Source: Microthyrium microscopicum (taxonomy: Eukaryota). Taken from it: a stretch of 64,000 nt of DNA. How positions within the stretch are numbered: the first letter of the stretch is position 1; every line of letters starts with the position of its first letter. Of this stretch, positions 36,076 to 60,084 are shown piece after piece. Made by a program: the position numbers and the translations under genes. The notes below the pieces were generated by a model. It searched no databases. It saw nothing but the letters and a program-made list of their open reading frames with translations, and was not told the origin of the DNA. The stretch is from positions 1,192,538 to 1,256,537 of the forward strand of contig MU004235.1 of NCBI GenBank assembly GCA_010405405.1, given 5' to 3'.

Positions 36076-36370
36076 TTATCTCAGTTCTCAGACCCTAACC
36101 CTGCCCGTCCGCGGGCTCCCTCCGCAGGAGGGTCTGAGGACAACTCGGATCTTTTTAGCGTGACGCGCTTNNNNNNNNNNGGTGCTGCTCCTCTTCCCTG
36201 CTCTCCGCTTTGCAAAAGCCCAGACAGATCGCCACCATCATCGTGGCCGATGAGCTGCGTTGGGCGTGTGCTCCTTTATCTCAGTTCTCAGACCCTAACC
36301 CTGCCCGTCCGCGGGCTCCCTCCGCAGGAGGGTCTGAGGACAACTCGGATCTTTTTAGCGTGACGCGCTT
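36076..36370 (+). repeat. Exact 95-bp duplication (36076-36170 and 36276-36370) either side of an N gap; putative element terminus/TIR
   Basis: ttatctcagttctcagaccctaaccc...gtgacgcgctt occurs twice with different left flanks; internal inverted repeat ctcagaccct/agggtctgag. Confidence 0.85.
36171..36180. other. Scaffold gap (10 N)
   Basis: nnnnnnnnnn in the sequence. Confidence 1.
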
Positions 36371-36491
36371 CGTGGTTGTTAGTAAATGCCTATATTATTG
36401 CAACCGTGTCCTCGCCACCAATATATATATATTTTTAATAATTCTACCATCATTGCAATCACCGTTTTTTCCTCTATCGATTCTATAAATT

Positions 36492-39400
36492 ATGCCTCCC
36501 ATTAGAAGTACGCGTCGTGGAGGAGGGTCTCATAGAGATAACCCAATTTCTACACAGACCAGGCGTACCTCTCTTCGGCAACAACAGCAGCAAAGGTAGA
36601 TTTATCTCTATAATAATAAAGAGTCTATATTTATGTATCTATAGCAATACCACAACCACGACAGATCCCGCGAATACCTCAAGTAGGATTCAACATGAGC
36701 CTAACAATGCCGAACCATCAGGTCCTTCACAACCAGCGGCGACGACAACACCACGGCAGAGCCCAAACTCGGCCAAAAAAAAGCTCACTGTGATACTTAA
36801 ATGTATTCGAGATCAGAAGATGTCAATGAGATCGTTTCTTCTATCGTGGGCTGGCCAAAAGGATAGTCATAGCAAGATTGTCCTTGATAACGACAAGTAT
36901 GCCAACGTTATCGGTCGCCGTACGCTCTTGAAGGATGTTATAGAACAGTTATCAAGTGATGGGATTATGCCAGAGTATCACACTGATTCTAGACTATGGA
37001 CAGAGTTTCGCGCCCTCGCAAAACTTACAGGTTTCAACCGCTTCAGTAGTAGAGTAGACGGTACGAACATCGACTTCAAGAAAGCCATTAAGAAGATGAG
37101 GAACACTGCACCTATTTGGACAGCCTTCCTTCATAAACTTATGCGCAATCGGGACCACAAGACATACAAACGGAGTGACAAGCCGGGATGGAAGCTCATG
37201 TATATGATCACAGCAATCATTCTTCATCGGCGGAGTAGAGAGACAAATAACTATCTGGCAGCGACGCTTGGTGTCTATTTGCTCGGGTCGGGTGTGAAGA
37301 GACGGGTTATGGACTTGCTAGCAGCTCTTGGAGTATGTACTGGTTATAAGACTGCACTAAGGCATATGAAGAAGGTTTCGAGACGGGCCTTGGTATGTAA
37401 CGGTACTATGCTTAGTATTGAACATGAGATCTTGCAAGATCTTTGAACATGTTGCAAGATCTTTGCACATCTTATAACATCTTCGCACATGTTGCAAGAT
37501 CTTTGCACATCTTATAAGATCTTTGAAAATCTTAAGTTCATAACCTTGAAAGACCTTATGCATTGCTAACGCCCAATATATAGAGAAACATTAGACGACG
37601 CGCACTAAACCGTCGGGCTGTCCTATGTTACGACAACATGAACTTTGCATCTCGCAAGCGCAACGAGATAGTAGGCAATACTGCAAGTATGGCGGCCGTT
37701 ACTACTGCTATTATCGCGATCTGTCCATCCTTACCTCCAGGAGGACTAACACAAGATATGCACGATCCAACAAAGGAGTTCGACTGGAAATCAATACAGG
37801 AAGGCCCATTAGTAAAGGCCGATGGCCAAGGAGGTGAACATGTCAAAACCATTAGCCGGTGCCTTATCGTGGACGCTTTGAAACGCGGCATTCCGGATAT
37901 CATCAAACCTTGGATTGCAAAGCATAAAAAGGATAAACACTGGCCTGGCATGCCAGACATTGATATACTTGCACCACACAAGACAGAGTTTGATCAGCTC
38001 GGCGCTATCATGGAGAACGAGGGAACAACAGATGGTACTTACCGAGTACACGATGAAATCTTCTTACGACATTTCGGCTTCCCAAAACCTCCAATCAATG
38101 ATGCAGGAGACGTGGCCTCATCATCCGATATCACAGCGTCTGTTCCATCCTCTCCACCTAATTCTGGACCAGACGCCTCTTCATCTAGTGTGGCCTATTC
38201 GTCTTCTGGCCGAACGTGCAGCGGGAGTTCATCCGTCCATCATATCTCTAGCCAGGACGGATCTGACGTAGATATGTCTGAGAATGCATCCCCGTCTAGC
38301 AGCGGCCCTGAAGACAATAACCACAACAATAACCACAACAACGAGTGGATTGATGTTGAAGACGATAACGCAAGCGAGTTTGATGATAGTGAAATAGGAG
38401 AGGCGTCTGACAAAGAAGGCAGCACAGACATTGAGTCTATTAGCGACACAAGTGCGTCTCCTAATCCTGGACGCGGTATTCCTCCAGTAGATTCCGTACC
38501 AGCATCGTCATCCAGCATCTTGGGTACAGTTAGCGATGAAAACTCTACTGATGGTTCACAAGCGTTGGATCCAAGTGCCAGGATCTTCGGAAAGAGGCTG
38601 TTTCTTACCCATGGTGATCAGTTAAGCACAAAGATCAACCGCTCTATCAAGGCCGAGGCATTCAATGAAACACAACCGTACGATTCGAGGAAGTTCCTTC
38701 ATCCGGTTCCTGGGTGGTTCCATATATACATGAACTACTTCTTCCACATTGTTCGAACCCATTGGGATTCCTCCGAGGTCGATACACCGGCTCCACATTC
38801 TATTATGCACGACGTTAGTGTATGGGGACGAAGCTGCAGAAAGCGCGACAATGCCCAAACCCATCAGGTTATTCCTGTCTTGATACAAGGATTTAGTAGT
38901 AGAGTCCTGGCGTTGTTTTTGCGGAGTCTGGACCGGAAAGGTCACTGCCCTGGGCGTGTTGATGATTCATTCTTTGCCGTCCCAGAACTACTCAAATCCT
39001 GTATCAATAGGTTATCCATGGAACAGTTCGACGAGATCATTGAAGATGTCCGTCAAACAGCCTTCACGAGAGAAGCATGGGACGGGCGCCCAGATGGGAG
39101 TGATGATATCGAGTTCCGAACCATGTGCCGGTACTTGCAAGAGATTGAGTTGCTCTTAACTATGCGATATGCCCTTCGATATGGCGATATTGGACTTTTG
39201 CGCCTCCTGGTTGATCCCCTAACCATTCACTTTTATGGCACTGGTCAGAACAACTATGGGGATGAGATGCTATGGCTCAGGTGGAACTTATCTGATGTGA
39301 ATACTCCTGAACTTCAAAGGTCTATCCTGGCCTCGAGCTTAGTCAACTGGGAAGGCCGTAAGAACTCCTTTAAGCCTATGGATCTAGGACTGGAGCATTT

Positions 39401-39920
39401 GAATGGCAACTGCAGTAGAGACATGAAGTCGTTTGGTAACTCGACTCACGACGTTGAGGCAACATTCAACAGAGTCTGCCTCTGTAATACGTACATGCGT
39501 CATTTACAAGACGCATTTGCGCGTGCGTTCGTGCGCAAGGCCAGTAACAAGCATACCAACGCTAGTGCGGAGCATGATATATTCTTGTTATGCCAGAATC
39601 TGATCAAAGATGGCCTTGCGGAGTCTCGACCCCAGTCCGCAATCGAGAACTACGGCCCATATTATGACTCGCCAGATGTAAAGAGGATAGGACTTGACAA
39701 GCTTGACATCAAAGCCGAGTCTTTCAATCGCAAAACCACTATCAGGCAAGATCATATGGGAAACAACATCACAACCAGGCCTATTGACATTCTTGACCAA
39801 GACGTTGATAGTAACGACTTGGATGTACGAGAAGAGGTTGCGATGGAGGAGACCATGGGCGATGTATTGTTTGACGGAGATGATCCTGGCGCATTCGAAG
39901 CCATGGAAGTTGATTTGTAA
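36492..39920 (+). CDS. Academ/DUF6589-like DDE transposase, ~1062 aa (exons 36492-36595, 36645-37392, 37584-39920)
   Basis: In-frame splicing at GT-AG sites; motifs G.YL..SG.KRRV.D.LA.LG.C..Y, YDNMNF, ENEGTTDG, HGDQLS, PVPGWFHIYMN, GDIG, NY..E, LVN..G....P.DLGLEHLN. These match the D-D-E pattern I recognise from DUF6589/Academ proteins. Confidence 0.8.
37421..37533. repeat. Perfectly 10-bp-periodic array (~11 units, core A(G/C)AT(C/G)TT) inside transposase intron 2
   Basis: gatcttgcaa gatctttgaa catgttgcaa gatctttgca catcttataa catcttcgca catgttgcaa gatctttgca catcttataa gatctttgaa aatctt. Confidence 0.92.
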
Positions 39921-39983
39921 ATATGCATTTATTTAAGGTTTCTGCTTCGGTCGTGATTCGTGCAAGGTCAAAATTATGGCAGG

Positions 39984-40066
39984 ATGTGATAGGATCTTAT
40001 CTGTTGTGATATAATCTGATTAATGTTAGAAAATGTTAGATGATGTGAGATGATGTTAGCCAATAG
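39984..40066 (+). promoter_or_regulatory. Phased WT(C/G)T array + CCAAT cassette (copy 1)
   Basis: About eight ~10-bp-spaced atgt/atct/ttgt motifs ending in gatgttagCCAATag. Confidence 0.65.
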
Positions 40067-41084
40067 GATTGCGCCATTCGATTCAGCCTTGCCGACGAAT
40101 ACTTTCTTGTTTCCGCAACATCGATTTGACAGACAACTCTGAGCGCGTCCCGGATATGGGACAGTATATTGACCTTCGTTATACGTTGAATGTGGAGGAG
40201 TTCGGAGTCGCTGCAATTTCCTATTTAAGCGTTAGTTATGTCTGTTCGTCGGTTTGGGCTCATTCTAGGTTAGCTTGAAGTATGGAGATGAGGGTAATTT
40301 TACGCCGCCAGGCAAACTAATGTTGTCCATATCGATGGTTCGAATTGACGTCTCAGCCTTGCTTGTTGTAACACAGGATTCTCCGCAAGGTGATATATGG
40401 AACGACAGATAATCGTATTCCATCTCGTGTTGGTTCCATGATCTTTTAAGTTTTGTCTAAGGATGGTTGGTGATCGGGGTTCTCCTGCCGTGGATAGAGT
40501 AGCGGCCTCCTTCAGCTTCAATATAGCCTTATCTTAGGAAGAAGTTGGTGTATTGTCCAACGGGGTTGCAGTATGGTAAGATATGCCGCGTATGCGTCTA
40601 AGGTAGCGAGGAAATCGATAGAGGCGTAGGCTGGTTCCAAGGAGGTAGTTCCTCACTTTCTGCTCCAGTGTTAGCCATGGCATTCAAGGCAATGAGGATG
40701 TCGATGTCGGTGCAGGTTGGTAGGGTGTGGTGGGAGGTTTATCGACCATTTAGTCCAGTAGTAGTCGCGACTACTACTGGGCGGTGGTGAACGTCTTAGA
40801 GAGTTTTCGAAGGAAAAAGAAGGGGAAGAAGAAGTGGTACATGTCTACAAATAGTGATGATATGTTATGCTCTCGACAGTCCAGTGAGCTTTCAGACTTT
40901 AGTAATCCTGTTGAGAAGTATATGCCTGTTACCGCATTTGGGACCTCTAGGACTTATAACGGGTGGATTTGCTTCATTTGCTCTGGTGATATTGTGAGCG
41001 TGGTCGAATCGCTCTCTCTGTTTGTCGGATCATTTCGAAGTGCTTCTGTTGCTCCTTCCGCATAATCCACTGGGTAATTGCGCA

Positions 41085-41362
41085 GTGGGTATCAACGGCG
41101 CTGTATATTGCGTCTTACGCTGGCCATTAACGCCAACTCGGTGGGATCGATTGCTCGGGTATCGAAGTCGTCGATTTGTAGACAGCGTAGCTGGCGCGCT
41201 GCGCTAGTCAGCAATGCTAGTTCTGTCGGGTCGATCGGCTGTATATTGGCTTCATCGCAGGGCGGGTGAACAGCGCGGCTGGCGCGCTGCAGTAACCATC
41301 AATGCCAGTTCTGTGGGGTCGATTGGCTGTATCTTGACTCCATCGTAGGGCAGGTGAAGAGC
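41085..41362. repeat. Diverged tandem array, ~88-bp unit, ~3 copies
   Basis: acagcg(t/c)(a/g)gctggcgcgctgc...aatgc(t/c)agttctgt(c/g)gggtcgat(c/t)ggctgtat at 41182 and 41270, with a weaker copy upstream. Confidence 0.75.
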
Positions 41363-41869
41363 ACAATTGGGTGTCTTTGGTTCTGTTGATTGTCGAAGTT
41401 GTTTTGCTAGCCTCTGTGTTAATTCTTTTAACTTCTTGCTGTATAAACATTCAGCGGGAAGCTATGGCAGCCGGAAGTAGCAAGAAGAGTGCTATTGGAG
41501 AAGTAAACATGGTGAAGTTTGAGAGTGTTCTGAGCATTGTCTGAGAAGGAAAGAGGATAGGCGAGAAGAGTAATGTGAGTGAAGCAAATGGAAAGTTATA
41601 ACCAAATAACGCACTTGCTAGCTTGCTCATCCTTTTCTTTTAGCAAGATCTTCACCTTCCTAATGTTTAGGTACTACGTATCGGTGTAACCTAGACCGCG
41701 ACCACCAATTGCCCTACGCATTGCTCCCGACTCGGTGGCAGTTCTCTCTAATTACCGAATAGTCGTTGGTGACGTTTATATATATATGTTGCCGAGGGAG
41801 GGAGCCGCGGTGGCATGTAGGCGGATGGCGGAGTAGATCCGGTGGGCCTGTTAGACGTTGGACGTTCAC

Positions 41870-43480
41870 TTCTTGCCAAGGTCGTTGTTAAAGCGAGATG
41901 CTAGCTGGCTCTCTTGGGTATTACTCTCTCTGAACAACCGACGGGTAGTTTCGAGGTTCGTTGTTTCTTGTGATAGATAGACCTGGAAGGCACATGTACC
42001 GTTCGAGGCACCCGTTCGAAGACCGCCTACGTAGCAAGGTAATGACTCCAGAACCTTACTGAAGTAAAGGTCGATGAGCATGCTGTTTATGTACATTTGC
42101 GTCGATCGGCAAGAAAGACTGCACCTGGGTCTAATCATGAGTGTTGATATGAATGATCATGACAGGAGATAGAGAGAACCTTACTAAAGTAGAGTTCGAT
42201 GAGCATGCTGTTCATGTGTTTGCGATTGATCGGCAAGAAAGAGCGTACGTAGGTCTAAATCTGGGCTGTTAACATGACTATTCATGTCAATCGATAAACA
42301 GGGAAGGAAACTGACCGGTAAATGTCCGTGTGGATTTGAACTCTGGTGATGCTAGATCCAGTGGCCGTAGCTCATATGCCGCTTCGTAGTGTGATATAAG
42401 CAAGGAATCAGGGAGGGTTTGATAACTGTGGTTTCCTCTACATCTAACAGGATATTCGCGAGTCATAAGGTCATAGCATTGCCAGCTGCTTTGGTTGCTG
42501 CAATTACTGGGGAATCGGGCAGTGCATGCCTACCGTGGAAAGGAAGAGGTAATCGTAGCGGTTCGCGTGTTCTCTCGCACCGCCGTTTATGAAGAATGTT
42601 CTTTGCCGCTTGCTCCTCATAGCGGTCACGGTTCGGACGAGGTTGAGGAAGGATAGGGCCGCAGTAAGGATCTGTACTTGAGACATGTATGTAATCCTCC
42701 CAACGTAGATGCATCATCTACCTCTATGGGTCTCTTTGGGAGGGTTAGTCTGTGCAAGAGTACCTTCAGCCTTGGATGCGTCTTCTACCTCGTCTTGGCC
42801 TATTTGGAAGTACTTCCTGGAGAAGAGATAGAGGTAGAAGATGCATCTACGAGCTTAGAGGCGACGTATCCGGTACGAGCATTGATAATAGAACTGCTAA
42901 GCACTTTGGCTTGCCCTACACAGGAAGAAGTACGGCAGTGGCCCACCTGGATGGGACGTTGATCTGCCCCCTACGGAACCATGATTAGTACGGATTGTCT
43001 GAAGTGGTAGGCATAATCCCATCGTTTTTTCATACTTATTCTACATGCCTCTCGACACCGCTTATATTTCACTTCTTCTATCACTCTGGTATCTGCCACC
43101 GCTTCCCACCCACGTGTATTGCCGTTGTCCTCCAGTCGGATTACGTTGATTGAAGCCAAAGTCCTAGTTCAAGTGTGTCCCGTGCTCTACTTCTGTATTG
43201 TTGCATAACGTGTGTTCCACGTTGGGCGAAAAGATGATAGAGCCAATGTTGGATAGTGACTGTCTTCCTCGTAGATGGTTTCGATATATCGTGCGAGATG
43301 TGGACAGGGAAAGGACCGATGCCAGAGCGATAGAGGTTGTGGGGAAGTATAGAACGAATATAGGTTATGATGTGAATGCGCGACAGGTACCTAGGATTTT
43401 AGCAAGTGCTTAGCAAGATTATATAATGGAGACTTCGCGCGTAATTTGGGTTTGTCTTACCTGGCAGGAAATATGCTCTT
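41870..43480 (-). pseudogene. Probable degenerate multi-exon cargo gene
   Basis: Minus-strand intron-like signals (e.g. gtatga...tactaat...tag at 43035-42971) flanking protein-like frames interrupted by TAG/TGA stops; bounds approximate. Confidence 0.3.
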
Positions 43481-43610
43481 TGAGGAGCTGTTTCCTAGCG
43501 TCCAGAACGAATGGGAATTGTGATTGTGGGTTGTTGGTAATTGTGGATTGTTGTTATCGGTAGACTGCCGGTCAGTTGGGTTGGTAGTAAGGTCGGTTTT
43601 ATTTTCGTCT

Positions 43611-43660
43611 GATATGATGCGATCTGATGTTGGAACTTGTTAGAAGATCTTAGCCAATAG
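43611..43660 (+). promoter_or_regulatory. Phased array + CCAAT cassette (copy 2)
   Basis: gatgttggaa cttgttagaa gatcttagCCAATag. Confidence 0.6.
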
Positions 43661-44199
43661 AATGCCAGGAATGGTTCTTTACCTTGGTAGTACGCAATAC
43701 AGAGATTTTGACTTACTCTCTTGCGGAGTTTACTATAGAATATCGACTTGACTGAGGCAGGACTACCTAACAATAACTAGAATGAGTGTGAGTAGGTATA
43801 AGCTAGCGGATAATTCGGTACGTATGACATTGGAGATTCCATCATAATTATTTTGTATATAGCTGTCTAAGGCTTGGAGTTAGTAGAGAACAATAAAGCG
43901 ACGAGAGAGATCCCGACTTACAGTCAAAGCGTTAGAGCTATTCCTTGATTTATGCCCAACTTGTCGTTATGCCGGAAAAGAATATGTTATTGAGCCAGTG
44001 CTGGATGCGGTTGTATGTCTTGTGGCCGCATGTTCTTCCTTGGGTTTTGGTTTCGGGCTCATTCGCGTAAGCTGAACGAGTTGCAAATGCTTGTATATTA
44101 CTTAGTCGTTGCAATGTTCAGGTCTGCTGCACTTCCGGCCCGTCGATCTCATCCTGGCGATCGATTGTTATGCAACCGGCGTAGCTTGTTGGGACAATC

Positions 44200-45190
44200 A
44201 AGGCCAATGTTCGACTCACTAGCTCTAGCAGTCGAACGTTGCGTAGCTTGCGAAGTTGGTGTACTTGGCTAGGCCAGAATGGTTTGCCCCAAGCCCGTCA
44301 TTCTCGCTCTGGTGGTAGAAGGTTGCGAGCTTACGAAGTTGGTGTACTTGGCTAGGCCACAATGGTTTGCCCCAAGCCCGTCATTCTCGCTCTGGTGGTG
44401 GAAGGTTGCGAGCTTGCGAAGTTGGTGTACTTGGCTGAGCCAGGAATGGTTTGCCCCAAGCCCGTCATTCTCGCTCTGGTGGTGGAAGGTTGCGAGCTTG
44501 CGAAGTTGGTGTACTTGGCTGAGCCAGGAATGGTTTGCCCCAAGCCCGTCATTCTCGCTCTGGTGGTGGAAGGTTGCGAGCTTGCGAAGTTGGTGTACTT
44601 GGCTGAGCCAGGAATGGTTTGCCCCAAGCCCGTCATTCTCGCTCTGGTGGTGGAAGGTTGCGTAGCTAGCGAAGCCGCTACAGTTGGGTGGGTGGCTAGC
44701 ATGACAGCGCTGGTTTGTTCCAAGCCTGTCACCCTCCTTCCAGTGGTTGATTCGCTATGTCGCTGGCGAAGCCGTTGTAGCTGGGTAGGCGGCTAGCATG
44801 ACAGCAATGGTTTGTTCCAAGCCTGTCACTCTCGCTCTAGTGGTCGAACGTTGCGTCGCTGGCGAAGCCTTGACAGACGGCTGTCGCGTCGAAGCACCAC
44901 AGCCATGGTTTGTTCCAAGCCTGTCACTCTCGCTCTAGTGGTCGAACGTTGCGTTGCTGGCGAAGCCTTGACAGACGGCTGTCGCGTCGAAGCACCATAG
45001 CCATGGTTGTTTTAGGTCTGTCTGTCAAGGCTCTAGTGGTCGAACGTTGCGTTGCTGGCGAAGCCTTGACAGACGGCTGTCGCGTCGAAGCACCACAGCC
45101 ATGGTTGTTCCAGGTCTGTCTGTCAAGGCTCTAGTGGTCGAACGTTGCGTTGCTGGCGAAGCCTTGACAGACGGCTGTCGCGTCGAAGCG
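44200..45190. repeat. Tandem array of ~10-11 related units (spacings 83, 84, 84, 84, 96, 97, 98, 98, 98 bp)
   Basis: Anchor (a)tggtt(t)g at 44279, 44362, 44446, 44530, 44614, 44710, 44807, 44905, 45003, 45101. Confidence 0.95.
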
Positions 45191-45489
45191 CGTCGCGAAG
45201 CCATTGGAAGGGGTGAATGTGGCGAGTTTGTACTGGTTGCCAGTTGGTGAGAATATATTGGCCGTTGCCGTACTACCAGGAATAAAGGCCTGGTATGTTG
45301 TTAGTCGTAAACCAAGATGGTCAGCCAAGGAGGTACTGCTTACATCAAGACTTCCAACTGCTCAAAGCCTACAGTCAGATAAGTTGTAGTGGAGCTAGAG
45401 GTGACATAGAATTGGTGTCTTTCTCTCATAGAGAGAGGTTGGAACTTCAATGTTGGAAGTGACGTCTGGAGCGTTCTACGAGGGTTGTC

Positions 45490-45580
45490 TTATATAGTAA
45501 CCCTTAAGTTTGAAGGCATCCTATTGGTCCACATCTTCGAATATCTTCTAATATCTCGTCAGAATATGAAAGATCTATAA
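45490..45580 (-). promoter_or_regulatory. Phased array + CCAAT + TATA cassette (copy 3)
   Basis: Minus strand: agatct..attct..agatat..agatat..agatgtggaCCAATag, then ctatataa ~25 bp downstream. Confidence 0.65.
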
Positions 45581-47544
45581 TTAAATAGCAATAACTTCCC
45601 TAGACTGTGCCTTTCTAACTTCTCAACGCAAGTGAGATGTACTAATCTCTACTACTCTGACCGTCAGCGCCTTGTTTAAATGTAGCATACTATATCCAAG
45701 CAGCTCCGAGTCTCTTGCTTGGACCTAGGTTGTTGTAGTGGATTAAGGCGTTGGGACTAGAGTCTGCTAGATCATATCGAGTAGATGCGACTTTGATTGG
45801 TCTACATGCTGTTGTTGCTTTCGGTGGAGGTATGGCCACGTCTGAGTAGAGATGTTTCTCGATAGAGCAGTAGATGACACATTCGAACTTTTGAGGTTTC
45901 AAAGTCTGAACGATTAGAAGCGATATTAAAGCCCGGAGTAACTCTGTATCCGATGGAAGGAAGCCAACAAATCGTGTAAATTTAACCGCTTGAGCTTTTC
46001 AATGTTTTACTTCTTCTACTTCTTCTTCTTTAACACACGTCTATACAGAATATTAGCAGAAGAGTCAACAAACAACCAATATACTTTACTAAATACTCCC
46101 ATATCACAAGACAAGTCGTCCTCGCATCTTTTGGCCTTGACATCAAGCTTTACACCCTCTTCAACCTATTATGATGAGTTCAAAGACGTGCCGAATGGTG
46201 GCATATCGACCCGTCATGATAATCTAGCACAGAGCACGCGTGTTTACCAAGCAAGTCGTTGAAGTGGCATTCATGCTTCAGTACCTCCTTTGAGTGCTGC
46301 GGGAAACCCTTTAGAACTCAATCATGGTGCAGTCCTCCCGTAAAAGCTCCCGCCAGGTCTTGGAACAACATCTGTTGACGAGCTCGAAAAGTCGTCAACA
46401 GAGGCTGCGAGCTCGTTAGGGATTTGACCAGGTATCAGTGTAGCGATTGGATTTGACAAGCTCGCAAGAATATTGCCGCGAGCCATCTATCATTTTGTCT
46501 CGCGAATACTAGGGGCGGTCTCCATTAGTTACATCATTTCAATATCAGAACTAAGGACTTACAGGCATCCTGAGCATATCTCCACACCTCGATCTACTCG
46601 CAGGCACCGTGAATAGCATCACGTTCTGGACGCTATGATCCAAAGACTCCGTCTGCGTGTGAAGCACTTGCTACGTCGCAACACCGTTAGCCACAGTTTT
46701 GAGAACGGCTGCGCCAAAAGGGCCAGCGTCCAAAAACCAATTCCATGATAGATTGCAGAACTTCTTCCCGTGAACTAATGACAACAAATGTATCTTCAAT
46801 CATTGTCAGCGAGTTAAGGGATGCGCCATAGTGCACATGCTTCACTTTGCTATATCTGGGATTGTCAAGGGGGAAAGGATAAGCGTACCGTCAGCTATTG
46901 CTTAGTTCATGGCGTACAAGATTGAACGGGGCTTAGATAGGCATGCTATAGCGATTGAATTCGACCACAAAGATCTTGTCTTCAGCCATTAAGCTACAAG
47001 TAGTACTGGTTTAGTATGGAGACTCAATGTTTCTAAGTCTCTAGATTGTAACAGAGTTAGTATACAGAAAGACTGCGTTTAACATATTAGAAGGATGATA
47101 CTTACCTTAAACTCTAAACCTTAAATATTGCAACATCGATATCCATTCCTAGAGAACTAGAGCTTGCTAGTTTATAAGATAGTGCTATGATCTCGCGTTA
47201 AAGAATACTTAAATAAGAAGATGTAGCTTTCAAGAAGTTCTGTACTACAGTTCAACATAAAGAAAAGATAGAGACGGATTTGGTATACAAGTGTTTAACC
47301 ACGTAAGTGATTCAGAATATAAGTTTTCAGAATAGAAAGAAACATAGCCAACGAAGGGGCTAGCAAACGGCAATATAATTGACTGCGTAATCTGCTATCA
47401 TAACTCTAGGGGATAAGGATGTTTGGGAAGAAATAAACGATACGCGCTGCTGGGCTGCTTACCGCATTACTTAGACTTTAATGAAGATGTACCTTTGAAT
47501 ACAGCGCCAAAGAAAAAGGTAGTCCTATTGTCGTTGGGTACTCC

Positions 47545-48065
47545 GCCGCATTTCTTGATGGACCATGACAAGGAAGTATTTGGCAGCGGTACTGTGAAAA
47601 ACGAGCGCGAGTAAGGATGGGCGGTGTGCCGTGTCTCTTGATGGTCTATAACAAGGAAGTATTTGGCAGCGGTACTGAGAAAAACGAGCGCGAGTAAGGA
47701 TGGGCGGTGTGCCGTATCTCTTGATGGTCTATGACGAGGAAATATTCGGCGGCGGTACTAAGAAAAACAAGCGCGAGTAAGGATGGATGATATGCCGTGT
47801 CTCTTGATGTTTAAGAACAGGAAGATATTTGGTAGCGGTCTGAAGGAAAAACGAGTGCGAGTTGTAGTATGCGATATGCGGTGTCTCTTAATGTTTAAGA
47901 GCAGGAAGATATTTGGTAGCGGTCTGAAGGAAAAACGAGTGCGAGTTGTAGTATGCGATATGCGGTGTCTCTTAATGTTTAAGAGCAGGAAGATATTTGG
48001 TAGCGGTCTGAAGGAAAAACGAGTACGAGTTGTAGTATGCGATATGCGGTGTTTCTTAATGGTTG
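47545..48065. repeat. Tandem array, 83-84-bp unit, 6 copies in two subtypes
   Basis: Anchor (a/g)gcggt at 47585, 47668, 47751, 47834, 47918, 48002. Confidence 0.95.
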
Positions 48066-48239
48066 ATAAGTTAGCAACAACTTGCAGTGGGTACTAAGAC
48101 ATAGGAAATATACGTATCATTGGCTACTGAAATGCCAGTTAATGGCCCATAATAAGAGCTTCGTTTAAGGTGATCTTTACTACGCTAAGGAGTATATATC
48201 CGTAGTTGACATGTTGGTTTACTGTTAGGCATTGAGGAG

Positions 48240-49205
48240 GTTTTGGCGGCGGTGTTTGGGAGGAAGATGTGGTCTTGTATTGTGTAAATGATACTGTTAG
48301 AAGAACGCTGGCGAGCGGACTTTTGGCGGCAATCTTTGGGGAGCAAGATGTGTTCTTGTATTATGTAAATGATGCTGTTAGAAGAAGGCTGGCGAGCGGA
48401 CTTTTGGCGGCAGTCTTTGGGGAGCAAGATGTGGTCTTGTATTGTGTAAATGATACTGTTAGAAGAACGCTGGCGAGCGGACTTTTGGCGGCAATCTTTG
48501 GGGAGCAAGATGTGTTCTTATATTGTGTAAATGATGCTGTTGGAAGAAGGCTAGCGAGCGGATATTTGGCGACAGTCTTTGGGGAGGGATATGATAGTGT
48601 TCAGCGTAGCGAATCGTGTTCTTGGAATGAAGCTGGCGAGCGGATTTTGGCGACAGTCTTTGGGGAGGGATATGATAGTGTTCAGCGTAGCGAATCGTGT
48701 TCTTGGAATGAAGCTGGCGAGCGGATTTTGGCGACAGTCTTTGGGGAGGGATATGACAGTGTTCAGCGTAGCGAATCGTGTTCTTGGAATGAAGCTGGCG
48801 AGCGGATTTTGGCGACAGTCTTTGGGGAGGGATATGATAGTGTTCAGCGTAGCGAATCGTGTTCTTGGAATGAAGCTGGCGAGCAGATTTTTGGCGATAG
48901 TCTTTGGGGAGGGATGTATGGTATTCAGCGCGCGAATCGTGTTCTTGGAATGAAGCTGGCGAGCGGATTTTTGGCGATAGTCTTTGGGGAGGGATGTATG
49001 GTATTCAGCGCGCGAATCGTGTTCTTGGAATGAAGCTGGCGAGCGGATTTTTGGCGATAGTCTTTGGGGAGGGATGTATGGTATTCAGCGCGCGAATCGT
49101 GTTCTTGGAATGAAGCTGGCAAGCGGATTTTTGGCGGTAGTCTTTGGGGAGGGATATATGGTATTCAGCGTGCGAATCGTGCTCTTGGAATGAAGCTGGC
49201 GAGTA
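48240..49205. repeat. Tandem array, 80-82-bp unit, 12 copies in three blocks
   Basis: Anchor gcgag at 48311, 48392, 48473, 48554, 48636, 48717, 48798, 48879, 48959, 49039, 49119 (gcaag), 49199. Confidence 0.97.
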
Positions 49206-49693
49206 GACTTTGAGAAAGAGAATGCTTGTACCAAGTTGAGGATGCCGCTTAATAGCTGATGTTGCGATAAGACTTTTGAGTGCGTGTAAGGCTTTGGAAA
49301 GGATTATGCTGTGTGCTCGAATCTAGTGTACTGGTATGTGATGAAATCGGCTTTGCGACTTTGCCTTTGGCTTTTGAGGAAACATCGGTGCCATCTTGTG
49401 ATGGGCGGGAATATGCGTTGCGATATGAATTGGTTGTTGCTTTGGACGTAGAAGATATCAACATTGGCCAGCTTTGTAAGATAAAGAATGTGGGGATGCC
49501 AATGGCCAGAGAGATCGCGGCATAGACGATGAGGAAGTTATGTGTAAGCCGTAGGTGTGAGCGACGCTGATTATGCCTAGTCTTAAACCGTGGTTGTTGA
49601 GGTGAATTGTATCGTGATGGAAGGTATGAATGTTGAAGTTAGATGCATCAGCATGAAGTTGAAAAGACTTTGAAGTTACGATGCGATGTTAGG

Positions 49694-49790
49694 TATTATA
49701 CGCTAATGATTAAGTCTCGCTAAGAGCTGTTTGATTGGACTAACATCTTTGCACAACTTGAAACATTATTTAAGAACGTCCCATATTATC
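49694..49790 (-). promoter_or_regulatory. Phased array + CCAAT + TATA-like cassette (copy 4)
   Basis: Minus strand: gttctta aataatgttt caagttgtgc aaagatgttagtCCAATca, then tataat ~35 bp downstream. Confidence 0.65.
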
Positions 49791-50782
49791 TAAAAGTAGT
49801 TAAGCGTATCTTGGTCTGCCCGTTCGGAGTAGAACCTTAAATCTAGCTTTGCTCAAATACTACTGGCTTCGTAACTTATTGCTACACCTTTCGCCTTTAT
49901 GATCTGGTTTCATTCTACAGACAATATACGGGTACTTAGAATCATCTTCTCTTTCGTCACAGACATAATGATTATAAGGTGAGGTTAATGACAAGCTCTA
50001 GAGTATATCTTCAAATGTTGGGTTACCTGTCAAGCCAAAGCAAGCCATTGATGTGCCAACGAGAGTAATAGTACTGCTAGTTTCTAGTCCGGGGCTCTAA
50101 GCAATTATGATTGGAGCAGATCTACAAAACAGTTCGACTTGTGGACTGATGTGGACTAGCTAGTATTCAGATGTGCAACGCACTGTCATCCCATTCTGAA
50201 GGAAAGAGATTTTGGAAATCCCTTTTTGACTTTGCAACGTCGACTTCTGAAAGCATTGCTGCTTAGCAGCAGTTTAAGACATTCTGATCGCAAGCTAGCA
50301 AGGGACTTTACTATATCATTGGATGGCTCATGTCCATTACGTTATTTGAGACATGATCTACGGCTTAGCTCTATCGCTACTGGATGTAGTCAGCCGAAAC
50401 GAGGAATGTTCGACTAGGATATGATCCACTAACATGGCTTGCATGCCGCTATGCCGATCAGGCTCCATAGATAAAGACGAGATGAGCTAAAAACAGGGAT
50501 TACCTGATCTGAATTCATGAGCGCGGCATGGTTAGTCGTAGATCGCCTATCCCGTTTATGGTTAAGAAGCACATTATCACTCGTACTCTGAGAGTACTTG
50601 TAGAGTCGTAGAATTTGGCAACGGCTCACAGGCATGTAAGCCTACCAGCGAGCGGCGACGTAGTGTCAAAGACGATGGAAATTCTCTAAGTCTGGTCTCA
50701 AAAGATTGAACAAGAATCATTATTTATCTATCTTTGGGCAAACAATACATATCCTGTAGGAAATCATTGTCAGGGTCGTTGG

Positions 50783-52447
50783 TCAAACCAAACCCTTTCG
50801 AATAGCTGCATCTCGAGTTTCCACTCCTTTGATTGCCATCTCGTGTTGTTCGGTCTTCCATGACTTCCATTTTTCCTCACCAGCAACAAGGCAAGCAATT
50901 TGCCGAGATGTGAATTCGCTGAAGTCCTCCTTGGCCTTTCTGGTCTTCGCGACATTGGGACGTGGCTTAGGCGCCGATTGCTTGTTGTCCTCATGAAACG
51001 AGCAAGTCTCATGACATCCTTCCATAACACAATTTGTACAGGCTCCCTTGAACAGAACGCTTCCGTCCTCGACTTTCATAATTATGCAGGTAGTGCATGC
51101 CAATGTTGGTTCTTCACTATTCTTTGTTTGGGATGGACCAAGACTTCGAATTTCAGAGCAACGCTGACAAGAGTATTCAACCCGACCCGTGGCAAGGCAA
51201 TATGCCATCGCGGCATATAGTGAAGGTAGTGTCTTTAGAATATTTGCAAGCTGAGGAGTGGAACGTTTATGCCATTGTAGACCTCGTACCGGTTGGTATT
51301 TGAGGAGTGCTTGAAGCATTGTCAGATCAGTGTCATTGGGGATCCATTTTCGGAGCAGGTGGAAGAGTAGTTGCACAACTCGGACATCGGTAGTTTTGGC
51401 GCGGTCATTAAAGATAGACACTTTCATGTCACCGAACATATATTGCTTCTCCAAGAACCGTAGAACCGGGACCCGAAGGTCCGCTTTCGGCGTCGACTTC
51501 TCGCTCGTGGATGATTTAGAGGATGGTGATGGCTTCTTGACCATGACTTGAGTTGGAGAAGTTGTTGGACTTTTAGGTGATGCCGTAGTCTTTGTGTTAT
51601 TTCGCGACGGAGTTATGGAGCCTGTATTGGTTGTGTCACCTTGGGTACTTCGACGCACGCGTGCTTGACTATGAGCAGCCTCCTCTGCGATAGGTTCCAA
51701 GTTGCTCGCTCGGCGTTTTTGGCGTGCCTCTTTCTGCTGTTTTGCTGTTTCTACTTCGCTACTAGCTATGCGGTACCTTTCCTGCCAAATCCGCGAATTT
51801 CCTTCATGGGCGCTATGTAGAAGCATTGCATTATCACGGCGGCGAGTTGCTGCAGTTACTGGTGATTCTTCGCGATCTGGGGTTGGCCGCACTTCTTCTC
51901 CTTTTAGAGGAGGAATAAATCCATATTTGAAACCTCTTTCTATCGCAGCAGCATCCTCTTTACTACGAACTGGCATCAATGGATGATCATAATCATAATG
52001 GCTCTCGTCCTTTTCGACTGATTGTTTGATGGAAGTGGAAGCCTGGTTTCTGTCGCTTTGCATGGATAACGCGGCGAGTTGATTCGCCGTTTTGCTGGTA
52101 GGAGTGACTGCGGCTAGCTGGGCCTGGTTAGGCTTTTGAGGAGTTTGTGGCGATCGTGCCGACATTTCTTGACGAGGATGTTTTTCGCCGCGAAATTGGG
52201 AATTGGTAGAAGGTAGAGATGTCTGCGGTGATCGGATTGGAGTGGTTTGACGGCTCACTGAACGTGCTTGGTTTGGATTCGTAGACTGCTTAATTGGAGT
52301 GGCTTGTCGGGTAGATTCTGGTGACGAGGATTTGTCTGAGTTCAGGGTGATTGGGTCTTTAGCAGAGCTTCCAGGTGTTTTCGGTGTGCTTGAAGCAGTT
52401 GTAGCATGCTTGATGTCAGAGCTTGTAGATGCACGCTTTGGAGCCAT
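50783..52447 (-). CDS. 554-aa protein: long S/T/P/K/Q-rich disordered region plus C-terminal Cys cluster (DUF3716-like putative Zn-binding domain)
   Basis: Intact ORF; TGRVEYSCQRC...CTTC...FKGACTNC....CHETCSF. Confidence 0.75.
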   Translation of the reverse strand: MAPKRASTSSDIKHATTASSTPKTPGSSAKDPITLNSDKSSSPESTRQATPIKQSTNPNQARSVSRQTTPIRSPQTSLPSTNSQFRGEKHPRQEMSARSPQTPQKPNQAQLAAVTPTSKTANQLAALSMQSDRNQASTSIKQSVEKDESHYDYDHPLMPVRSKEDAAAIERGFKYGFIPPLKGEEVRPTPDREESPVTAATRRRDNAMLLHSAHEGNSRIWQERYRIASSEVETAKQQKEARQKRRASNLEPIAEEAAHSQARVRRSTQGDTTNTGSITPSRNNTKTTASPKSPTTSPTQVMVKKPSPSSKSSTSEKSTPKADLRVPVLRFLEKQYMFGDMKVSIFNDRAKTTDVRVVQLLFHLLRKWIPNDTDLTMLQALLKYQPVRGLQWHKRSTPQLANILKTLPSLYAAMAYCLATGRVEYSCQRCSEIRSLGPSQTKNSEEPTLACTTCIIMKVEDGSVLFKGACTNCVMEGCHETCSFHEDNKQSAPKPRPNVAKTRKAKEDFSEFTSRQIACLVAGEEKWKSWKTEQHEMAIKGVETRDAAIRKGLV

Positions 52448-52904
52448 TGTTATGAGTTTCAGTAGAAGAAATTGTGTCTTGTAGTTATTTGAAGTATTCT
52501 TTAGATGTAGGAGTACAAAGAAGAAGAAGAAGTGGAGAAGTTGATGGATCGAGAGATTAAATAGACCACAAACGCAGGCTCCTACTGTCGAGCCTAAAAT
52601 TGCTCTATCGTGAGAGGTTACTGCTTCGCTTGATTACTGAAGCTTCAGCCTTCAAGGCTTCAGAGCTTCAAAGCGCTCAGCCAGTCCGGTCCTCCCTTGC
52701 TACATGTAGACGCATCTCACGATTATTACCATCTTACCTACTCCATCAGTGAATTGCTGACTGCCATGTTGTAATGGGCACATCCCGAAGGAATAAAGAC
52801 GCCTAACTATGTGGTTGATATCCGATAGCATTCTGGGCAGCCGGCGCCAACAACGTCCGAGCCCTTCCGGATTGCGTAGTTTTGGTTTTGTGAGTGCTAT
52901 GACT

Positions 52905-53250
52905 GTTGGCGCAAAGAACACTGTTTCATCGTCGGAATGGGCGATGAGGAGGATGATGCGCTTATTGCGGAGGATAGGAGGTACGGTGGATGTTTCATGG
53001 GCGCAAAGAACATTGCTTCATTGGCGGGACGGGCGATGAGTAGCACGATGCGCTTCTTTCGGAGGGCGGGACATGTAATGGATGTTTTCATAACGCAAAG
53101 AGCATTGCTTCATTGGCGGGACGGGCGATGAGGAGCACGATGCGCTTGTTTCGGAGGGTGGGACATCTGATGGATGTTTCCATAACGCGAAGAGCATTGC
53201 GTTGTTGGCGGGATAGGCGATGAGGAGCACGATGCGCTTGTTTCGGAGGG
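52905..53250. repeat. Tandem array, 92-bp unit, ~4 copies
   Basis: Anchor (g/a)ggcgatgag at 52939, 53031, 53123, 53215. Confidence 0.92.
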
Positions 53251-53639
53251 TAGGAGACGCCCCATGATTCTTCCCAAAGCCGTGCAGAGTCTGTGTTTTT
53301 GTAACGATATACTGTTGTAGTTGTTGGCTCGCCGGATACACTTGCGGTGGTTATTGCGGGCTGGTTGGTGGTTCCTATCGGCCGAGGAAAAGATGGTATA
53401 GAGGGTAGTGGTACTCGGATCAGATAGATGTTTCAAGGGCGCGAAGAGAACAGTAGAAGTACTGGCAAGGGTATAGAATTCGAATATCAGCGCAAGAAAT
53501 AAGAGAGGCAGTTTATAAGATAGAGGACAGGAGATGTGGGGGCAAAGACTGGTAAGGATTAGAAGTTGATGCGGTATTAAAAATTAATGGGTTGGGAACT
53601 AGATAAGATATGGACTATATGATCAGAACTAAGGTAAAT

Positions 53640-53692
53640 GATTGGCTCAGAAGTAATAACATCATCTAAGATCTTGAAAGATTGTTACATAA
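53640..53692 (-). promoter_or_regulatory. Phased array + CCAAT cassette (copy 5)
   Basis: Minus strand: atgtaacaat ctttcaagat cttagatgat gttattactt ctgagCCAATca. Confidence 0.6.
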
Positions 53693-54344
53693 CTCCGTTC
53701 ATCTAACCAGATTCAGTAAGATCAATATTAGCGTATGGATCTCTTACTACAACCTTCTGAATTCAAGTAACCGCTACTCCTTAATTCTCACACCAGCATT
53801 TATACAATATAAAATGTCTATACTTGTTTCACACACTATGTCCCTATTAGCCATCACACTACAACAGACAAGCCTACCAGACGGAACCACCATCTCATAG
53901 AAACACCTTCAATCACAAATAACTCCTCATCTGATTCACTATCAGTATAATCACGACGTAGAATATCCTTGCTATAAAAGGACTGGATCGCTCTGCTAAC
54001 TCCTTTTACAGATCAATCAAATAGAAACGAACCGTCTCCTCTCTCCAGCCTACTATACATCCCTCCGACCTACCACATATCCAATCTAGGAATACCTTGC
54101 ACCCTAAAACAAGAGCTTTATCATCTAGACAATCGGTATCACTACGTTACACGCAAGAAGCCTATCACGGCATCGATTTGCATATCTCTATCAGCAAAAC
54201 AACGAATCCATAATAGGTGCCGCCCTCAACCACCAGCCGGCCACCAGCCGTACATGAGATCAACCATCAAGTCGACTATCATCTCTTACATCAATGCCAA
54301 CCGCGTTCAATCACCAGCCGGCTCATTGCCCCTTCCGGACCGCT

Positions 54345-54590
54345 TGCCAAATATTCCGTCAATTTCCAGAAGTTGGTAACGATTACACAAAATACATATC
54401 TGGCAGTACTTCCATGCAAAGTCCCTTCACTAAATATCTTGTCAATGTCTCGATGCTAGCGGTGATTTTACAAAATACGCCACTGGCAATGTGCCCATCA
54501 AAAGCCCAATCGTCAAATTCTTCATCAGTCACTGAATATTAGAGGCGACAACGCGAAATACAAAAGCGGCAACACCTCCCATTGGAAGCC
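54345..54590. repeat. Highly diverged tandem array, ~84-bp unit, ~3 copies
   Basis: Recurrent aaat..tca..aaatac..ggca..cca skeleton at ~84-bp spacing. Confidence 0.45.
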
Positions 54591-55329
54591 ATGGTTTGCA
54601 CACTATGTCAACCTTTGAATATTAAGGACAATGACACAGAATCTACACCTGGCATTACTTGCTATCCGGAACCGCTGCCATGGAGGGTGTCTCATCCAAC
54701 CAATATTGGCGGTAATTGTACAGAATCTCTTTTCAAGTGGCACTTCTCAGCAAAAGAGCCATATCAGTTGAAATTACTTTTAGTAATTGTTCGCAATAAC
54801 TGGACAGCAGAATCAAAGAGTATAATTTGTAAGGCCCGTTCTCCACTCCAGTTAATGCATTGTTTATCTCCATCAAGTCAATAATATCTCTTGTAGTTTG
54901 GTAGCCGTGGATTACAGAAATCTTAGCTTTCTTCAGACGAAGACATCCCATGGCATGTTCTTACGTACAAACTATACATGGTCTTGTTACCATCTGCTTC
55001 ATATTATCATGTAAGATGTAGCGCTTCGTCAAAGTCCAAAACTACATAATCACATTGGACGATAATACGGAGATTTGATATATTCGACGATGTCACGATC
55101 ATAAAGAACAATGTTAGAAAGATTCAAGTTCATAAGCCAGTGTTATCTTCCTTGGCTACAACCGACAAGTAAGCAAAGCCTTCAAAGTACTACTATACAG
55201 GATCTCGTTGGTTATCACCTCCCACTCGCATTACCCTCAGCGACCAAACTGAAGCTGAATCCAGAGCCACCAGACATTAACGGCAGCCAGAGCTAGCGGA
55301 TATCATCCGACTGTAATCACGTCCAACAA

Positions 55330-56420
55330 TCACGACCATGTGCTTCCTCGTGGGTTGAGTACAGCTGGAAGATCGGCCATATCAAGGAAAGGAGCGTGAA
55401 ATGTTGGCGGCGGGAGGCTAGTATCGATCATTGGAACTGATCCAGGTGGCGCGGTACCGTAAACCCATTCTCCGTCTCCTGAGGCGGGCAGATGAGGAAC
55501 GACGTCTTCGAAACTGCAGTGTACGCCATCCCACATACAGCACGCACATTGACCATTTCGATGTCCAGGGAGATTAACGCACCCCATCATCGCTGGCCAG
55601 TCGATTTGGGACCGAGAATGAGGAACTGCCGCCGGGCAATGGGACAGGCATCGGGTGCATTTTCGATCAGCTGTGTGGTATTTCCCGCGACTGTATAAGA
55701 CCATGGCTTCGATAAAGACACCAGCGATCTCAGCACCAGACTGCTGAAAGATTTGAGAGAACAAGTCTGCCATTGGGTGCGGGATGCCGGACTTTCTAAT
55801 CGCACATACACGAAACGGGTTACCGCTTCCTGCGAGAAAACCATTTGGACGGGGAGGAACCGCCCAGAGTCGCCATAAGCCTGGGTCCTGACTAAAGGTT
55901 AGTGAAATGATTCGCAATTGGAAGAATATATACTTACGTTCACGATCTGGACTAAGACCTGGAAGATATAACAGGTCAAAGGGTGGTGGAAATCGATTTG
56001 AGCATACTGGCTATTGTTTGGTCCCCAGCGAACTAACTGTCCACCCGGATTTCGCACCGTCACCTGTCGCCAAGTAGGGAGTGAGCTGTTATCCTTCAAT
56101 CCGAGCGCAACACAAATGGCCGTCATGGTAGAGAGCTGAAAGGGCAGGCCAATCCGACCGAAAGGACGTCGCGCGTTGACGTCGGCTTGATGTCGCACAC
56201 GCGCAAGTGTCTCCTGATGCTTTCTCTCCTGGCCCAATACGAAGACAGCATAATGGTATGACATGAGTGCCACAGGAATGAAACTACGCCAATCGAAATT
56301 GGCTTTGGTCTGAGACTCAGACCATACTGCGCGGGGGGAGAAGTTCTGCTCATAGAACTGCCAAATGCTCCAAACGATGAGGGGCGCGTGGAAGTGAACC
56401 CAGAAGCGGAGGCCAGGCAT
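55330..56420 (-). CDS. ~346-aa two-exon protein with C-terminal DUF3716-like Cys cluster
   Basis: Exon 56420-55938, intron GTAAGT..ACTAAC..CAG, exon 55887-55330; SRG..RKCTRC...GCVNLPGHRNGQCACCMWDGVHCSF. Confidence 0.7.
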
Positions 56421-58575: not shown

Positions 58576-60084
58576 TTAAGTCGACGCACTGGCCGAACCT
58601 CCACCAACGGGCAAAATCGCCACGAACTCCCCACGTTCCTTCGGCAATCTTCCCAACGCCCCCTTCTTCCCAGTCGGTGTATTCACAGGTCCGACTATAC
58701 TGCAACCACCCTTTAGCGGCCCTGCCGCACGGCACCGCGAACACCGGAACCCAGGTTTTTTGAGAACATTTCTCGCCTCCGAAATGTATGCTCGGCACAC
58801 ATAACCCCTAAGCTGGCAACGCTTACAAGCGTCATCACCAGTCAGAGTCTCACCAGCATCCGTCTCTTCTATACGACCGATATGAGTCGCCTTACGCTTC
58901 TGGTCGGGCGACATGGCCTCCCACTGGTCAACGGTCACTGACCAGAAATAATCTGGTACGAGAGGGCGACTCAAAACATCGCTGCTCTCGTGAAAATGCC
59001 AAGGGATTTTCTTGACCAAACCGCAGGCCTTGGCAACGGCCATGGCCTTTGAGTTAAAAGACCCAACCGGGCCTAAAGAGGAGGCCTCTGCGATAGCGGC
59101 TGCTGCGCGAGCTGCAAGTGAGGCTTTTGCAGCTTCAACTTCCTCGTCGAAGTCTGCATAGGTGGTGCTATCGTGAGCACCGGCGGGAGAAATTGGGGCG
59201 GCAGGAGATGGTAGGTCGAGAGGAGACGGTGTGGCAGCACGCGCGGCAAAGAAGTTCGCAGCGCGAGAAAAAACTCCGCCAAAATACGGCACGCCGGCCA
59301 ACCAAGGAGAAGGGGGAGAGGGAGGAGGAGAGCCCCAAGGCGTCCCAGTGGAAGGAGCAGCAGAGCTCTCTCGAGAGCGGAGAGGAGAAGGAGACCGAGA
59401 AGGCACAAACAAATCGCGACCATCATCTTCGTCGTGATTGTCGTCGTAGACCAGCGTATCATCCCCATCCCCATCCCACATATACGAATCCTCCTTTTCT
59501 GCAGCAGGAGGAGCCTTTTTAAAGGCGAGCGAATCCTCCTCTTGCAAGGCAGGCAAATCGCTATCAAAATCGGCGGACAACGCCAAGGACTCTCGCCCAG
59601 AAGAACGCGAGAAAGCGGGCGAAGCAAGGTATCCGCGCTCATCCGAGAGCTCGGGCTCAGACGACGACGGTTGTTGAATTGCGCCTAGAGGCGCAACCGC
59701 GCGAGAAGACCGCTGTGGTGGTGGTGGCGGTGGTGGAGGAGAGGAGGGAGGAGTAGGTGGATTTGAGGGTGGCGAGCCCCAGACTACCGCCCATTCTTCT
59801 CGATCATCATCACTATGATATTGTCAACATCATTATTTGCGATTCAAAAGCAAAGGAACATACTCATCAGCGTCGGGAAGAACGTCCAGGAGGTCTACGC
59901 GCTTATCGTAGCGCGAACGTGTCTCTCGTCGACGGACCGTTCTAGATTCCCTGACGACCGCCGCGTAGGCTTTCAGGCCATATATCTTTTTTTTACCCTC
60001 AAAATTATGTTCGAACGGGTTGGTGCGAATATACGGCGCATCACGGCGCACTAAATGTGCTGGAGGCTGGTGATATCGAGGCAT
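58576..60084 (-). CDS. ~485-aa two-exon Pro/Ser/acidic protein with C-terminal CxxC-x6-C...CxxC...C zinc-cluster-like motif
   Basis: Exon 60084-59864 splices (GTATGT..TTGAC..TAG, 59863-59813) in frame into the 336-aa ORF; ACKRCQLRGYVC...FRCSRC...GGCS. Confidence 0.7.

Follow-up and report, generated by a model that had tools for sequence, protein, structure and literature searches.

A minisatellite-like tandem array in an exon of an intron-rich, apparently non-coding RNA of Microthyrium microscopicum

What is a tandem array, in which better-kept and more variable segments alternate at a regular period, doing in the genome of a fungus? The array in question lies at 44207-45198 of a 64,000-nucleotide stretch of Microthyrium microscopicum DNA (NCBI GenBank assembly GCA_010405405.1, contig MU004235.1, forward-strand positions 1,192,538 to 1,256,537). 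This stretch is called the window below, and all positions are counted from its first letter. An initial annotation, made from the letters alone, had described units with a constant core and a variable remainder, bracketed by convergent CCAAT cassettes. It had proposed that the array is either a source of double-stranded RNA (dsRNA) or a scaffold-plus-variable RNA array, and that it is not CRISPR. The reading favored here, with moderate confidence, is that the array is a non-coding minisatellite, evolving passively (neutrally), and takes up most of a single exon in an unusual minus-strand RNA, rich in introns and apparently non-coding.

Eleven contiguous units follow one another head to tail over 992 nt, and they are 71-98 bp long when cut at the ATGG with which each unit starts. 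Tandem Repeats Finder (TRF) reports two overlapping matches, 44234-44674 (period 84, 5.2 copies, 96% matches) and 44614-45189 (period 98, 5.9 copies, 85% matches). That the array is real is also seen from a 49-nt degenerate core, which fits seven of the eleven units at three or fewer mismatches (six at 0 and one at 1) and has no match at all in 100 shuffles. The units furthest from this core are U0, B1, C2, and C3 (see Table 1 for the units). Neighboring units are often nearly identical; B2c and C1, for example, differ at only 2 of 98 positions, and the differences between C2 and C3 are two core positions and the array's end. Decayed units that might continue past the array were considered and rejected, the left-flank scores being reached by 146, 210, and 258 of 300 shuffles and the best right-flank score by 39 of 300.

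Each unit consists of three segments, a 5' core half, a 3' core half, and a tail, and each segment exists in three to four variants. The variants form contiguous blocks along the array, and the borders of these blocks are staggered between the segments (Table 1). The initial description of a constant core with a variable part holds for the tails, whose three classes do occur in blocks, but the core is not constant. In U0 a C-like 3' core half is followed by an A-type tail, and in C2 and C3 the 5' core half has been rewritten. Every tail opens with a fixed prefix, GCTNGCGAAG(CC). Beyond this prefix the tails are related weakly and in a stepwise manner: the alignment score is reached by 16 of 2000 shuffles for A and Ab, 41 of 2000 for A and B, 10 of 2000 for Ab and C, and 1 of 2000 for B and C. 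The A and C tails give no significant alignment (229 of 2000 shuffles reach the score), while the cores of the same two classes keep a strong one (0 of 2000).

Outside sources of the variable segments had also been suggested as worth checking. The comparison of tails and cores with the rest of the window, with the array masked, gave nothing beyond 9-14 nt (best E 0.008). One C-type and one A-type tail had no exact match among viral contigs, a weak test by its exactness and one from which the B tail was left out, and the degenerate core had no exact match among metagenome contigs. An origin of the tails outside the array is therefore not borne out by these searches. The statement that the array is not CRISPR stands. 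Better-kept and more variable segments alternate at a regular period as in CRISPR arrays, but here the tails recur in related blocks and the "repeat" part itself varies. The array also lies within a spliced exon, among spliceosomal introns, in a genome with fungal gene content and no cas genes.

The block mosaic has the form that slippage, unequal exchange, and conversion between neighboring units give to minisatellites, and is that of an ordinary minisatellite. The units follow one another directly, with lengths in the minisatellite range of about 10-100 bp, and the chimeric units (U0 and A5b) are explicable by unequal exchange or conversion. The array would have grown by slippage or unequal exchange between neighboring units, and contiguous blocks of near-identical units with chimeras at their borders would exist because the same processes reshuffled it. 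The "variable" tails would then not be spacers that were acquired but the segment of one ancestral unit that has been rearranged most, and the array would be carried along in the RNA with no function of its own. Variant-repeat PCR maps of human hypervariable minisatellites show interspersed variant repeats. The Microthyrium array is like these minisatellites in its head-to-tail units, variants in blocks, chimeras at block borders, and identical neighbors. It differs from them in its location in an exon of a spliced RNA and in having one variant class that appears to come from a clustered, hairpin-forming change.

This variant class is found in C2 and C3, the last two units. C1 and C2/C3 are separated by 11 changes, and all but one of these are confined to alignment columns 1-28, the following 71 columns having a single change. 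In the core they leave GTCTGTCAAGGCT, which in reverse complement is identical to AGCCTTGACAGAC of the tail; at that place in the core C1 has only CTGTCA. The resulting RNA stem is about 14 bp long, with a fold z-score of -5.45 for C2 and -3.15 for C3, the remaining units ranging from +1.67 to -2.2. The cluster suggests one event in the C2/C3 ancestor, a change of the template-switch type by which the complement of the adjacent tail was copied into the core. Such a change would have turned a 6-bp quasi-palindrome into a 13-nt perfect one. Replication template switching is described as making reverse-complement copies and perfecting existing stems (Monttinen and Loytynoja 2022, PMC8794818), and C2/C3 resemble such cases in the cluster of 10 changes in 28 columns that replaces core sequence by the reverse complement of the nearby tail. 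Gene conversion from an unseen paralogous locus is a possible alternative and would look identical.

The hairpins also attracted two matches to the Rfam family mir-76, on the plus strand, which were rejected as chance level (21.3 bits versus a gathering score of 75, E 2.1). Rfam gave no match at gathering scores in the whole window and, at E up to 5 over 39500-55000, nothing besides these two. Two smaller inverted repeats noted initially are both present. GACAG-ACGG-CTGTC can fold, but TGGCT-G-AGCCA, with its loop of 1 nt, cannot fold as written.

The array is part of a spliced RNA. Of seven sequencing runs, none of them on record as RNA, four were compared over 39500-47500: X1 is DNA and probably the source of the assembly, X6 and X7 are low-depth DNA, and X5 is taken as complementary DNA (cDNA) solely from its splice joints, the run's label "RNA?" being a guess. 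In the pieces listed, X5 contigs have no letter that differs from the window. They contain 15 joints that skip 49-278 bp, and none is listed for X1. On the minus strand, after the shifts allowed by the aligner, 14 of the 15 skipped pieces begin with GT (one with GG) and all 15 end with YAG; many have CTAAC-type branch sites. From these ends and branch sites it follows that the skipped pieces are spliceosomal introns and that X5 is cDNA of at least one minus-strand transcript. Splice sites are the only strand information in the contigs. Contigs that match the window exactly, with 14 of 15 minus-strand deletions of the GT..AG form, are the new finding of this analysis; the RNA is transcribed and processed, as expected of a long non-coding RNA (lncRNA).

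That the array is present in RNA is seen from X5 depth in all array bins and from its position within an exon, the largest of the 16 exon pieces, of which it makes up 992 of 1368 nt (Table 1). One 3050-nt X5 contig with eight splices ends 100 nt into the left side of the array, at 44306. Another starts 22 nt inside the other end, at about 45177, and continues through six further splices. No joint is reported inside the array. Note that contigs are placed at one site each and depth is given per contig, so that depth ratios inside the array were not used. To the right, the last joint reaches 47463 and beyond.

Other features of this RNA were seen along the way. At the left end an X5 contig extends beyond 39500 by about 180 nt and enters the plus-strand DUF6589 ORF (open reading frame; stop at 39920) in its 3' part; this may be a convergent overlap of two transcripts that were merged, or one long antisense RNA. 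The 181-nt intron 40660-40840 seems to be both removed and retained in X5 (depth 805 for the contig with the joint, 929 for the bin within the intron). At 42050-42315 there is a 125-bp tandem duplication in which each copy has its own spliced intron, 42131-42184 (54 nt) and 42255-42315 (61 nt). The 3' halves of these two introns are alike and their 5' splice sites differ (GTAAGG versus GTCAGT). Regular-expression prediction of introns upstream of 47500 was tried and abandoned: of the 15 verified introns it found just 4, and it proposed 48 candidates on the plus strand versus 28 on the minus.

With its 15 introns removed, the spliced stretch is 6634 nt long (A 29%, C 27%, U 23%, G 21%) and holds no credible ORF. 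The longest is 184 aa from stop to stop, a length reached by 17 of 300 shuffles, or 116 aa from Met (63 of 300); as a control, the region of a P-type ATPase gene in the window yields 1011 aa. The three minus frames of the array exon are interrupted by 18, 9, and 13 stops, and in Pfam none of the 16 minus-strand ORFs of the region reaches the cut-off. Thus the host RNA is apparently non-coding over the 6634 nt of 39500-47500 that were seen, its 5' part beyond 47500 being outside this view. As to composition, the plus strand has a positive GC skew throughout 40001-54000 (0.045 to 0.365 in seven 2-kb segments), mostly with T over A. This excess of G and T on the plus strand makes the minus-strand RNA rich in C and A. 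At 40000-47500 TpA/ApT is 0.98 and (CpA+TpG)/(ApC+GpT) is 1.09, versus 0.64-0.78 and 1.25-1.33 in the rest of the window, which could be a mild old signature of repeat-induced point mutation (RIP) or simply non-coding composition.

Table 1. Positions of the array, its units, the surrounding RNA, and neighboring features in the window
Feature	Position	Strand	Remarks
Stretch covered by X5 contigs	39500..47500	-	30 of 30 bins covered; 15 introns; true ends of the RNA outside
Array exon	43922..45289	-	1368 nt, largest of 16 exon pieces; joints 43866>43922 and 45288>45343 (cut +1)
Intron downstream (3') of array exon	43867..43921	-	GTAAGT..TAG, 55 nt
Intron upstream (5') of array exon	45290..45343	-	GTAAGC..CAG, 54 nt
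Whole array (U0, A1-A4, A5b, B1, B2c, C1, C2, C3)	44207..45198	- (transcribed strand)	TRF, unit dissection, identity matrix, core pattern
U0	44207-44277	-	71 bp
A block, A1-A4	44278-44612	-	83, 84, 84, 84 bp; A2, A3, and A4 100% identical
A5b	44613-44709	-	97 bp; chimera, A-type core with B-type tail
B1	44710-44806	-	97 bp; B-type tail, diverged core
B2c, C1, C2, C3	44807-45198	-	98 bp each; C-type tails
5' core half, order along array			u0 x1, a x5, c x3, c2 x2
3' core half, order along array			c x1, a x5, b x1, c x4
Tail, order along array			A x5, B x2, C x4
Hairpin in C2	45020..45074	-	13-nt perfect inverted repeat GTCTGTCAAGGCT / AGCCTTGACAGAC, 29 nt apart
Identical hairpin in C3	45118-45172	-	inverted-repeat search, RNA fold
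Left cassette, TTAGAAGATCTT + CCAATAGAATGCC	43640..43666	+	wholly inside intron 43624-43682
Right cassette	45515..45551	-	exon 45344-45547, extending over the 3' splice site of intron 45548-45599
ORF, DUF3716-like below threshold	50786-52447	-	18.8 bits versus cut-off 22; letter for letter in a protein atlas
ORF, Cys-rich C-terminal part as in 50786-52447	55333-56010	-	DUF3716 17.0 bits versus 22
DUF6589 ORF	37584-39920	+	E 3e-62
Helicase_C ORF	62212-63999	-	E 4e-7

Several observations weigh against a neutrally evolving minisatellite in a non-coding RNA. Divergence is uneven, the core being kept better than the tail, and selection on the core could also cause this. Length polymorphism is the usual hallmark of a neutral minisatellite, and contigs of all four runs break within the array, so that they give no allele lengths. 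Contigs of the host RNA have a word depth of 1392-1570, which shows that this RNA is no trace by-product, although contig depth is unsuited for ranking expression. The 13 kb from 41 to 54 kb contain six array groups (units of 80-125 bp), an unexplained concentration, and at least three of them (41182, 42050, and 44207) are inside the same spliced RNA. Finally, a coding part may exist upstream of 47500, the ORF at 50786-52447 on the same strand being an example. The host RNA would be a lncRNA in its own right or else belong to the gene with this ORF, as an extraordinary 3' extension rich in introns.

The atlas clusters nearest to the latter ORF are DUF3716 proteins of Ascomycota. The 554-aa upstream ORF had 136 pattern matches in metagenome contigs, none of which was confirmed, and the 415-aa ORF at 58579-59823 is without a match. 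Arrays of 80-92-bp units are also found upstream on the same strand, at 47545-49203 and 52910-53255, and only about 80 nt separate the first of these from the start of the exon on the upstream side of intron 47185-47462.

The main rival, which we consider unlikely, is that the array is a working module of a lncRNA, whose repeated units would present a protein or another RNA with one binding site many times over. The array does occupy an exon of a spliced, ORF-less RNA with deep contigs and several further arrays, and its core is kept better than its tail. One inverted pair, CTGTCA / TGACAG, is preserved in every B and C unit (44702-45170 contains 11 of the 41 matches in the window), and the C2/C3 hairpin is strong. 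However, the fold tests do not follow: the partner position of the CTGTCA / TGACAG pair differs between unit classes, and A-type units fold like shuffles (z -0.4 to -0.6; A5b is at +1.67 and B1 at +0.44). RNAalifold over eight units finds no consensus structure (-3.57 kcal/mol, covariation term +0.49) and no compensatory support across unit classes. No k-mer of 7 nt or longer is common to at least four of the six array groups; the null shuffled whole arrays and overstates chance, so all that follows from this result is the lack of an evident common motif. The fold and k-mer tests accordingly found neither a conserved structure nor a conserved motif in the repeat units. No relatives were found, and identical neighboring units indicate recent duplication rather than long-term constraint. 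The related suggestion of a scaffold-plus-variable RNA array is not supported by the same folding results, nor by the tails, which match nothing else in the window beyond 9-14 nt and, for the two compared, nothing exactly in viral contigs.

Tandem repeats are a known feature of lncRNAs such as Xist (repeats A-F), Firre, NORAD, and fission-yeast meiRNA. The host RNA is like these in being long, spliced, and ORF-less with tandem repeat blocks in its exons. It is unlike them in that the array units have neither a conserved fold nor a common motif, and "non-coding" holds for the 8 kb seen. A broader and more speculative form of the idea, which we hold to be rather improbable, is that the host is a true lncRNA of a filamentous ascomycete, at least 6.6 kb when spliced and with at least 15 introns. 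Its several unrelated arrays of 80-125-nt units would then form a multivalent platform for RNA-binding proteins, with the array at 44207-45198 as the largest module and the C2/C3 hairpins as newly made sites.

A doubtful alternative is that the array acts at the level of DNA, as a binding-site array or enhancer or as a repeat block inside a large mobile element with DUF6589 and helicase genes, possibly a DNA transposon of the AcademH type, the RNA being incidental. The DUF6589 and Helicase_C ORFs do bracket the array region, 22 kb apart and convergent. The X1 run also has minor contigs at 39888-40256, 45598-45624, and 47130-47242, in which 36 of 37 listed variant positions are C>T or G>A, with up to five variant contigs covering 47189-47194. 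Judging by these changes, short parts of the region seem to have copies elsewhere in the genome that diverged in the manner of RIP. In addition, array units adjoin other sequences too, as is seen from loose ends in X1, X5, and X6. One such sequence is found before 44436 in X1 and before 44604 in X5, which are corresponding positions of A units; another follows 45224 in X5 and X6, and a third junction, before 44808, is in X1 only. At least one further locus or allele therefore holds part of the array, two of the three junctions being also in the cDNA run; the two loose-end flanking sequences that were searched for in the window do not occur there. Against action as a mobile element, most X1 bins over 39500-47500 have only the depth of the main contig at 88% likeness or more, and such depths do not show that the entire region has several copies. 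The right end of an element would fall outside the window, and there is an N gap at 36171-36180. Nor is a binding protein known.

As for the surroundings themselves, the N gap is flanked by identical 95-bp sequences (36076-36170 = 36276-36370, 100%) just upstream of the DUF6589 gene and looks like an artefact of scaffold joining. Between the long ORFs of this gene (36442-37446 and 37584-39920), probably in an intron, lies a 40-bp tandem repeat of 2.2 copies (37439-37527). Other fungal genes in the window include Gti1_Pac2, Fungal_trans, ferric reductase, and prephenate dehydratase.

That the two CCAAT cassettes drive convergent transcription, giving dsRNA and small RNAs from the array, is highly improbable. 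The cassettes are inverted and do face the array, as first described: CCAATAGRATGCC is found exactly at 43654-43666 (+) and at 45515-45527 (-). The array is present in RNA, and the contigs are compatible with a plus-strand transcript too. But the similarity of the cassettes is short, an interrupted stretch of at most about 25 nt, and near chance level. At two or fewer mismatches the 13-mer has five matches in the window versus 2.6 expected (14 of 100 shuffles reach five), and the only further similarity is a 12-nt, 92% inverted repeat (43640-43651 / 45540-45551). The TTAGAAG piece of the left cassette is the complement of the branch region of intron 43624-43682. Polarity is that of the minus strand at all 15 joints. 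Because one cassette lies in an intron and the other in an exon and across a splice site, both are internal to one spliced transcription unit and not promoters that flank the array. Intramolecular stems are at most 13-14 bp long, which is less than Dicer-type processing requires.

The weakest reading, that the A block encodes a 28-residue protein repeat, is very improbable: the 84-bp period is divisible by 3, four of six frames are open across the block (with minus-frame ORFs of 146 and 161 aa) and phmmer gives ten matches at E 1e-3 or better for the 146-aa minus frame, but the frames close in the 97- and 98-bp units, whose lengths are not divisible by 3, the exon has its 9-18 stops per minus frame, no Pfam family reaches cut-off, and among 8000 candidates scored, all proteins of 80-256 aa, none is related at E 0.01 or better to the 146-aa repeat ORF of the plus frame. 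The five of the ten phmmer matches that were examined are tandem-repeat proteins with mutually unrelated repeats (22-41% identity), and these matches were rejected as homology because they reflect repeat-on-repeat scoring.

The array is ordinary in itself, and the host RNA is the part of interest. Fungal lncRNAs are mostly short and intron-poor. A fungal RNA with at least 15 canonical introns in 8 kb, no reading frame, and several exonic tandem arrays is unusual. Among the papers listed by a literature search, none addresses tandem repeats in spliced lncRNAs of filamentous fungi, as judged by title or opening of the abstract. C2 and C3 offer a clean natural example of what appears to be a single clustered mutation making a perfect RNA/DNA hairpin. 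If the host RNA is a single non-coding molecule, it would be a tractable case for asking why splicing is kept on an RNA that is not translated, and for distinguishing a neutral from a selected origin of lncRNA repeat blocks. And if the multivalent platform were true, this RNA would be a fungal counterpart of the repeat-built lncRNAs of animals.

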